Under the pieces are notes generated by a model, which did no database searches, was not told the origin of the DNA, and saw only the letters and a program-made list of their open reading frames with translations. Below, one piece after another: positions 50,662 to 51,838 of a DNA stretch of 64,000 nt (its first letter is position 1; every line of letters begins with the position of its first letter). This stretch comes from Eledone cirrhosa (lineage: Eukaryota): positions 339,016,001 to 339,080,000 of the forward strand of contig OZ024742.1 of NCBI GenBank assembly GCA_964016885.1. The letters are read 5' to 3'. The position numbers and the translations under genes are program-made.

Positions 50662-51838
50662 TATACTTTAACTTTAATTATATCTCATAAAATAATACAA
50701 CTGGTTTTTCCACATTATACATTTTGTTAGCACCCCAAACACTTAAATTGGGTTTATATTTAAATATAACCTAATGTTTGTTGAGTGAGATGGTTACCAG
50801 TCAGAGTTTAGCTTTAAACTATCTCTGTTATTGTATTAAATATTTACTCTTGATTGGCCAGAGGTGTTTATTTCCAGGTACCTTATGAATTTGACTTTCC
50901 GTATTTATAACTGTTGTGAAATGTTGTTTTTTTGGTTGTAACTTCTCTGTTTTTTAGCCTAAGAAAATATATATATGCCTATGTATATAATTACATGCAT
51001 AGATTTATTTTCTTTAATTAATTGAGTTCTTTACACGAGGAATTGATATTAGTTTTGAAATAACTAATTAACCCGCGTGTGTTTTATATTTTACTCTTAA
51101 TGCGGCCGGAGATTTACATTCCCATTTGCCCTTTAAAGCATAACTTTCTGTATTTACTGCGGTTATGAGATGCAGTTCTTATTCGGGTACAACTTCTGAT
51201 TTTAGCCTAAGAAAATATCTATATGCGTGTGTAATTTATACACGCATATATTTATTATTTTTTTTATTTTCAATTGAGTTCTTAACACGTTGGATTGATA
51301 ATGTTTTCTAAAAAACTAATTAACCCGCGTGTATATTATTTTTTTCCTCCTTTCGTGGATCGTAGTTGTCTCCCCGTCCCGCTTCGTGTCGCTATGATAC
51401 TTCCTCAGTCAAAAACTGCTGGAATTTCAAATTTTGCGGTCTTTCGATGCGAGAAGAAGCAACTTAACAGACACGATTTTTGACTGCGGTAAGAATTTCT
51501 TTCTTATATCAAAGTTTAATGGGCTTCCACTGATGATTTATAAGCACCCACCTAAATATATTCTTACATGAATATATATTAGGCTTCTACATAAACTGGA
51601 AATATTCTCCCAACTTATAGAAAACTTATAATGAAACAATTGTTTGGAAAGAGAGATATACTTTAACTTTAATTATATCTCATAAAATAATACAACTGGT
51701 TTTTCCACATTATACATATTGTTAGAACCCCAAACACTTAAATTGGGTTTATATTTAAATATAACCTAATGTTTGTTGAGTGAGATGGTTACCAGTCAGA
51801 GTTTAGCTTTAAACTATCTCTGTTATTGTATTAAATAT
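50662..51838 (+). mobile_element. ORF-less hammerhead-bearing element with ~180-bp terminal direct repeats (995-bp period)
   Basis: 50662-50843 nearly identical to 51657-51838; internal diverged ~250-bp duplication; hammerhead immediately before the second repeat; microsatellite flanks. Confidence 0.7.
51525..51649 (+). ncRNA. Type I hammerhead ribozyme with ~80-nt loop II (family C)
   Basis: TTCCA-CTGATGA-T TTATAAG..CTTATAA T-GAAA-CAATTG-TT-TGGAA. Confidence 0.75.

Follow-up and report, generated by a model that had tools for sequence, protein, structure and literature searches.

A predicted hammerhead ribozyme with a branched stem II domain in a non-coding, multi-copy tandem repeat of Eledone cirrhosa

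In a window of 64,000 nt from the genome of Eledone cirrhosa (contig OZ024742.1, positions 339,016,001 to 339,080,000, forward strand; positions below are those of the window), 1.18 units of a 995-nt non-coding repeat are inserted inside a (TA)n tract. A sequence-only reading had described this insertion as an element with LTR-like direct repeats, carrying a hammerhead with an ~80-nt insert in loop II and starting very close to the counterpart of its predicted cleavage site. The locus raises the questions of what kind of element it is, whether so enlarged a hammerhead is a conserved fold, and whether its predicted cleavage is reflected in the 5′ ends of the genomic copies.

As summarized in Table 1, the insertion begins and ends with direct repeats of 186 nt, which are 98% identical, lie 995 nt apart and enclose 809 nt of non-coding DNA. 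Neither an ORF of at least 80 aa nor a match to Penelope proteins was found for the 995-nt unit. The spacing, the direct repeats and all the coordinates of the sequence-only reading were reproduced on re-examination, while the label LTR-like was not tenable in the sense of LTR retroelements. Insertions of the family range from ~0.1 to ~4.6 units with one fixed 3′ end, and the direct repeats are pseudo-LTRs because the insertion is a 1.18-unit partial tandem ending at a fixed internal 3′ end. Older subfamilies also retain two splice-like motifs (51487-51493 / 50871-50880), a donor-like GGTAAG that precedes the ribozyme and an acceptor-like TTTCCAG that follows the 3′ end; this predicted pair would place the ribozyme in an intron.

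Table 1. Positions of the features of the insertion and its flanks in the window.
Feature	Position	Strand	Description
Whole insertion	50662..51841	+	1.18 units; both edges blur into TA repeats by a few bases
5′ pseudo-LTR copy	50662..50847	+	End of the truncated upstream unit; begins ~+12/+13 past the predicted cut of that unit
Internal ~255-nt duplication	50832..51344	+	Copies 50832-51092 and 51080-51344, 73% identical; AT-rich hairpin in each
TGGGC flank	51520..51524	+	Complementary to GCCCA at the insert start (ACCCA in the window copy); predicted to form a pseudoknot or a competing helix
Stem I 5′ strand TTCCA, core CUGAUGA and U of the stem II basal U.U pair	51525..51537	+	TTCCA 51525-51529; CTGATGA 51530-51536
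Branched stem II domain	51538..51631	+	Stem II 51538-51545/51624-51631; linker 51546-51550; hairpin IIa 51551-51583; hairpin IIb 51585-51622
U, core GAAA, stem III ACAATTGT, GUU and stem I 3′ strand TGGAA	51632..51649	+	GAAA 51633-51636; CAATTG 51637-51642; TGGAA 51645-51649, pairing with TTCCA; predicted cut between 51644 and 51645
3′ domain, between the cut and the fixed 3′ end	51645..51841	+	Multibranched fold; contains the 3′ pseudo-LTR copy 51657-51842
(TA)n target microsatellite, 5′ side	49827..50661	none	
(CA)n then (TA)n microsatellite, 3′ side	51841..51996	none	

The surroundings of the insertion are rich in other repeats. In the adjoining TA run lies a separate two-armed (inverted) element (51993-53020) with hammerheads having a 49-nt stem II and the palindrome CTAATTAG, and at ~53110-53447 there is a solo pseudo-LTR end of a coding Penelope-like family (as at loci L134, L135, L138 and L145), which has a minimal U.U-based hammerhead and ends in (TA)n. 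The stretch 39557-48655 holds a tandem pair of decayed LINE copies, presumably L1/Tx1-like judging from their motifs, whose frames resemble endonuclease and reverse transcriptase, and long minisatellite arrays with 41-nt and 38-nt units fill 1-12019 and 60036-64000.

The insertion belongs to a large family. An 18-mer from the 3′ half of the ribozyme gave 2,411 matches in the genome and a 3′-end motif 2,744, with none for either reversed control. A DNA search of the genome (3.0 Gb) returned 2,439 candidates, of which the 40 scored were 94-98% identical and included head-to-tail arrays of up to ~4.6 units. Overall, the copies grade from 97% down to 76% identity, and beside the main family there are an older subfamily with a ~740-nt unit lacking one copy of the internal ~255-nt duplication, a sister family with a 707-nt unit (1,744 motif matches; 69-74% identical to the window) and a third subfamily with a ~700-nt unit. 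The family accordingly displays the retrozyme trait of non-coding tandem units with a type I hammerhead in each. A rough count of private changes revealed no excess of A-to-G editing scars (33 of 18,754 A vs 54 of 24,560 T, p 0.33).

The hammerhead core, stems I-III and the insert were all found where the sequence-only reading had placed them, and the type I fold was judged to be real: CUGANGA, GAAA and NUH occur in order together with the three stems. The GTT ends at 51644, and the second direct repeat starts 12 nt later. TTATAAG (51538-51544) pairs with CTTATAA (51625-51631), leaving 80 nt between the arms. The hammerhead possesses neither the purine-pyrimidine 10.1-11.1 pair nor the short loop II of the canonical model; stem II is closed at the core by a U.U pair in the main family and by A-U in part of the sister family. 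As had been anticipated of standard searches, Rfam gave no hammerhead match at the gathering score, nor at E<=10; its low-score microRNA matches, far under their gathering scores, proved to be AT-rich hairpins. Stem III is an 8-nt palindrome with a predicted dimer helix of -6.4 kcal/mol, and in the sister family it has a different, likewise self-complementary sequence. A search for a short-loop ancestor of the ribozyme yielded five matches, namely one deletion copy and four sequences from another element, and the candidate was dropped.

Conservation of the core was assessed in 129 copies from 100 loci and limited to its 5′ half, since the 3′ half had been partly selected by the search motif and would be an unfair test. 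C3, U4, G5, A6, G8 and A9 showed at most one substitution each, plus one shared gap, while N7 drifted (U in 103, A in 13 and C in 12 copies); position 7 is the free position of the hammerhead core. In the sister family GUU has become GUC, another cleavable triplet. The window copy has G>A at 51546, as do 11 of the 129 copies, and a private G>A at 51617 in hairpin IIb; because of the latter change, and because it has only one ribozyme, it may itself be inactive.

The folding of the 80-nt insert, which the sequence-only reading had proposed as a check, revealed a conserved three-way junction with two hairpins. Compared with shuffled sequences, the 96-nt stem II domain folded with z values of -4.0 (window), -6.7 (L065) and -3.3 (L243), and the whole 146-nt region showed no excess of folding (z -1.0). 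In 30 chosen sequences, comprising 17 of the main family and 13 of the 17 sister copies, RNAalifold, unaided, recovered a hammerhead with the three-way junction on stem II, and covariation was evaluated. Among the 33 named pairs, 96% of the cells pair, and both sides have changed in eight: one in stem I, two each in stem II, hairpin IIa and hairpin IIb, and one in stem III. Compensatory cells numbered 89, as against 34 in shuffled alignments and at most 13 in slid controls; they represent one or two events per pair, passed down to many copies, and the count of compensated pairs by itself fails to beat the shuffles (279 of 500). Covariation in the main family by itself was weak. The sister family keeps stems I, II and III and both hairpins via compensatory changes, and the third subfamily has an identical ribozyme layout. 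The TTATAAG/CTTATAA pairing, on whose presence in other copies the original proposal hinged, is thus kept across copies and compensated in the sister family. The pattern of substitutions indicates that the extra hairpins are under selection for structure. A UNCG tetraloop considered for hairpin IIa was discarded on account of a misfit of register.

GGGC just 5′ of stem I and GCCC at the start of the insert are conserved in three subfamilies with zero compensatory changes. Their pairing could be a pseudoknot or a core-blocking helix; when five copies were folded as single sequences, it competed with stems I and II in two of them. In the structural model, the hairpins most likely stack on stem II and offer GCCC to the 5′ flank as a pseudoknot that replaces the loop I/loop II contact.

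Other hammerhead-like motifs abound in the genome. Another family (L133:7965-8100, minus strand; also L134) has a 91-nt stem II domain, which folds as a long irregular hairpin with no junction, together with an A.A at its base and the palindrome CACGTG. Type I hammerhead-like motifs with stem II domains of 12 to 95 nt and many different palindromes occur at L022, L096, L132, L149, L225, L226, L234 and other loci. Coding Penelope-like families at L029, L054, L125 and L131 have the core UUGANAA, a U3-A8 covariation that has been described for schistosomes (PMC4209133).

To define the ends of the insertions, a 3′-anchored sample was used: from the 100 listed of the 2,744 matches, a narrower anchor retained 88 matches, which merged into 76 rows and finally left 69 insertions, the seven rows dropped being cut by a locus edge, rearranged, segmental duplicates, mis-aligned (one) or a fragment beginning at +12 (one). 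The 3′ end lay at +190 to +198 past the predicted cut in 67 of the 69, with the alignment running a few bases into TA. A TA run was present on the 3′ side of 66 and on the 5′ side of 60, and two loci with informative flanks (L057 and L080) had target duplications of 19-27 nt. The 197 nt before the 3′ end form a conserved multibranched domain, in which eight of 40 pairs are compensated and which is closed a few bases before the end by AATACA (51689-51694) with TGTATT (51827-51832); it is likely the entry signal of the reverse transcriptase. By analogy, the fixed 3′ end ~192 nt after the cut and the 5′ truncation would fit target-primed reverse transcription as in Penelope-type elements, and the geometry of the 3′ end fits internal initiation on an AT-rich nick, as in an anole Penelope-like element for which internal initiation and AT-rich nicking are reported (PMC11167929). 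The family therefore combines the traits of a non-autonomous Penelope-like element, namely a fixed internal 3′ end, variable 5′ truncation, pseudo-LTRs and TA targets. Against a Penelope-type reading counts the near-absence of a 30-40-nt tail (second 3′ end) and of an inverted 5′ arm, with both strands in one of 164 loci; both features are optional in Penelope-like elements (PMC8557442).

The 5′ ends were subsequently mapped against the GUU site, revealing an excess at the predicted cut with a spike at +1. In the 3′-anchored sample, 13 of the 69 insertions start at -3 to +20, as against 2.7 expected from the copied length (p 2e-6). Of the 63 runs reaching the first cut, 52 pass through it, and 24 of the 69 insertions are longer than one unit. 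Genome-wide (reverse strand, one match per locus), TA-joined starts numbered 189 in -12 to +17 vs 42 in -43 to -13. Among the matches listed, 41 distinct loci were distinguished by eye: 21 join at +12 to +18 on ATATA and seven at +10/+11, and with +10 to +18 set aside there remain ten at +1 to +9, two at -2 and one at -12 to -3 (p 0.004 to 0.014). The first 100 of 151 matches comprised, again by eye, 45 distinct loci, of which 13 join exactly at +1, one at -1, seven at -2, 11 over -3 to -13, one at -15 and 12 at -18. Counted per position in these 45 loci, +1 is therefore the top position without long microhomology; for its 13 joins against the 11 over -3 to -13 the Poisson p is 6e-11, or 0.004 against the two positions sharing a T microhomology. 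A TATA microhomology at -18 gathers about as many junctions in the same matches, so that microhomology alone can yield a peak as high as the +1 spike. In the sister sample four of 29 start at -1 to +10, and L266 and L238 begin at the cut of that family. An opposite reading, that the 5′ ends ignore the cut, had come from loci found by the ribozyme motif; such a sample cannot hold copies starting at the cut, and the 3′-anchored sample overturned it.

Hence the proposed tie between insertion starts and the cleavage site holds in part. The 5′ ends are enriched at or just after the cut, yet only about one in five insertions start there and most read through. The start of the window copy is not assignable: it coincides with an ATATA stretch that is microhomologous to the (TA)n target, and by itself proves nothing. 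The distribution of ends suggests that, in the cell, a minority of the RNAs are likely cut by the enlarged ribozyme, and the 5′ end made by self-cleavage would apply to a minority of templates.

Candidates for a mobilizing enzyme are plentiful, with more than 10,000 GIY-YIG candidates in the genome; six sampled ORFs carried RVT_1 and/or GIY-YIG domains, and elements with reverse transcriptase plus GIY-YIG, U.U-based palindromic hammerheads and TA-flanked 3′ ends are abundant. In 130 loci taken from those candidates, covering the GIY-YIG family (70 of 150 scored places, with some overlap), a Hydra-like protein (30 loci) and DNA of the oldest subfamily (30 loci), no coding partner turned up that has this ribozyme or this 3′ domain. 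One coding family has a predicted U.U-based, UU-cutting hammerhead and 3′ ends ~125 and 165 nt past the cut (by eye). A second, which we take to be Hydra-like from its motifs, resembles the element in U.U, CAATTG and UU but has a 2-bp stem II. The unit shares no sequence with these two families beyond the U.U/palindrome/UU motifs, and no Hydra-type link to the element was established. A copy of the old subfamily (L273:4-770) is arranged head to head with a 5′-truncated Hydra-like coding element, with ~30 nt of TA between them; at this one locus the arrangement would fit a nested as well as a joint insertion.

The element is a 1.18-unit copy of a non-coding tandem repeat present in several thousand copies, which has a conserved branched hammerhead fold, and on these grounds we consider it probable that it is mobilized in trans by a Penelope-like reverse transcriptase/endonuclease, i.e., a non-LTR retrozyme. 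We infer its expression, its cleavage and the mobilizing enzyme, and Penelope-like mobilization in particular is suggested by the geometry, the target and the literature (10.64898/2026.07.22.740005; PMC7229834). In the proposed mechanism, transcription of tandem copies would yield a multimeric RNA; the enzyme would nick (TA)n, and cDNA synthesis would start inside the RNA, just past the conserved 3′ fold ~192 nt after the cut. Copying would proceed upstream until the enzyme falls off, followed by joining through TA microhomology. The ribozyme, needing a second copy for stem III, would cut part of the RNAs, such that about one in six runs would end there; the remaining runs would read through uncut multimers or a religated circle to give more-than-unit copies with pseudo-LTRs.

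A tentative alternative, to which we assign an appreciable though minor probability, is that the template is mainly a monomeric RNA circle produced by self-cleavage and ligation, around which the reverse transcriptase runs, the +1 starts being reopened circles. In 40 insertions with overlapping units, successive units differ at 248 of 16,191 sites (1.5%), and 283 minor variants are common to them, together with some private ones (eight in L006 and seven in L013), as such a template would give; RNA circles have moreover been shown for the retrozymes of coral, mussel and axolotl, for which this route was proposed (PMC7229834). A homogeneous multimer, however, explains the concordance equally, and 45 discordant sites carry alleles from other insertions. 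The order 895 G then A is seen in each of L005, L020 and L023, which is what a linear mixed multimer derived from a single source locus would produce and hints at such multimers; L017 and L093 have the reverse order.

It is rather improbable that the fold is kept for a non-catalytic role, such as protein binding, packaging or pausing of the reverse transcriptase, with the pile-up of 5′ ends caused by stalling at the folded domain and by ATATA microhomology. The read-through in 52 of 63 runs and the microhomology under 21 of the 41 listed junctions (+12 to +18) agree with such a role, as do the low activity of Penelope hammerheads (PMC4209133) and the findings that insertion in vitro was unaffected by ribozyme mutants and that reads ending at the cut were absent (PMC11167929). 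Yet all the catalytic bases are held while N7 drifts, the highest start without microhomology is the first base past the predicted cut, and the change from GUU to GUC in the sister family stays cleavable, with L266 and L238 starting at its cut. Least credible, to the point of being very improbable, is a non-autonomous LTR retroelement, be it a TRIM or an LTR retrozyme of the plant type, or else a DNA satellite dispersed through recombination: although terminal repeats of 186 nt (98% identical) enclose 809 nt of non-coding DNA and some head-to-tail arrays occur, the repeat length varies with the truncation point of each copy, the dispersed, short copies all share one 3′ end in TA, end mapping contradicts it, and the fixed LTRs with TG..CA ends, the type III hammerhead within LTRs and the 4-bp target duplication of plant LTR retrozymes are absent, the ribozyme lying outside the repeats.

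Returning to the trans-mobilized retrozyme that we prefer, one may speculate, as a doubtful extension, that the two-hairpin domain is a natural regulatory module on a hammerhead, which would either bind the Penelope protein or switch GGGC/GCCC back and forth from a pseudoknot (on) to a core-blocking hairpin (off). In this way the cut fraction would be held at about one in six, and the majority of reverse transcription runs would give more-than-unit, transposition-competent copies. If this were true, the genome would constitute a single-base record of ribozyme activity in vivo.

The class of element is known, and the branched stem II domain is probably a new feature; a survey of the open-access literature turned up no natural hammerhead with a branched stem II. 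The domain illustrates that descriptor and Rfam searches overlook abundant hammerheads, and it offers a natural scaffold with a folded module on stem II. With the metazoan non-LTR retrozymes the family shares non-coding tandem units, a type I hammerhead with palindromic stem III, low GC and co-occurrence with Penelope-like elements (PMC7229834; 10.64898/2026.07.22.740005), and the axolotl HHR_Amex2 also has U.U at the base of stem II (PMC7229834). It differs from them in its 995-nt unit, as against typically ~300 nt with a reported range of 51-972 bp (PMC7229834; 10.64898/2026.07.22.740005), in the 80-nt branched insert, in its mostly short, 5′-truncated, dispersed copies and, relative to the consulted parts of the metazoan retrozyme reports, in having some 5′ ends tied to the cut by end mapping.

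The short stem I (4-5 bp), long stem II (7-8 bp) and dimer-type palindromic stem III are those of Penelope pseudo-LTR hammerheads (PMC4209133), and partial-tandem pseudo-LTRs, (TA)n preference and an internal fixed 3′ end downstream of the ribozyme are shared with Penelope-like elements (PMC4209133; PMC8557442; PMC11167929). Unlike these, the present element has no ORF, no G10.1-C11.1 pair and a large branched domain, with one 3′ end without a clear tail, rare inverted arms and no partner in the 130 loci. Loop-loop contacts can be replaced by base pairing of a stem I flank with loop II, as was predicted for ~40% of the ribozymes examined (PMC3088659); here the strand that pairs would be a three-way-junction linker, and conservation suggests the contact. 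As in the discontinuous Clec2 hammerhead, a natural hammerhead is broken by a large insert, but Clec2 is of type III, with a 150-1500-nt insert in helix I and located in a host mRNA, whereas the present one, of type I, belongs to a mobile repeat and has its structured domain on stem II (Clec2 as reviewed in PMC6155905). For Penelope hammerheads a low activity in vitro was reported (PMC4209133), the anole element gave no reads ending at the cut (PMC11167929), and the function of hammerheads in Penelope-like elements was called unclear (PMC8557442). In the thousands of insertions described here, the footprint at the predicted cut base can be counted and the cut fraction estimated, which bears on whether, and for what purpose, Penelope-type hammerheads cut in vivo.
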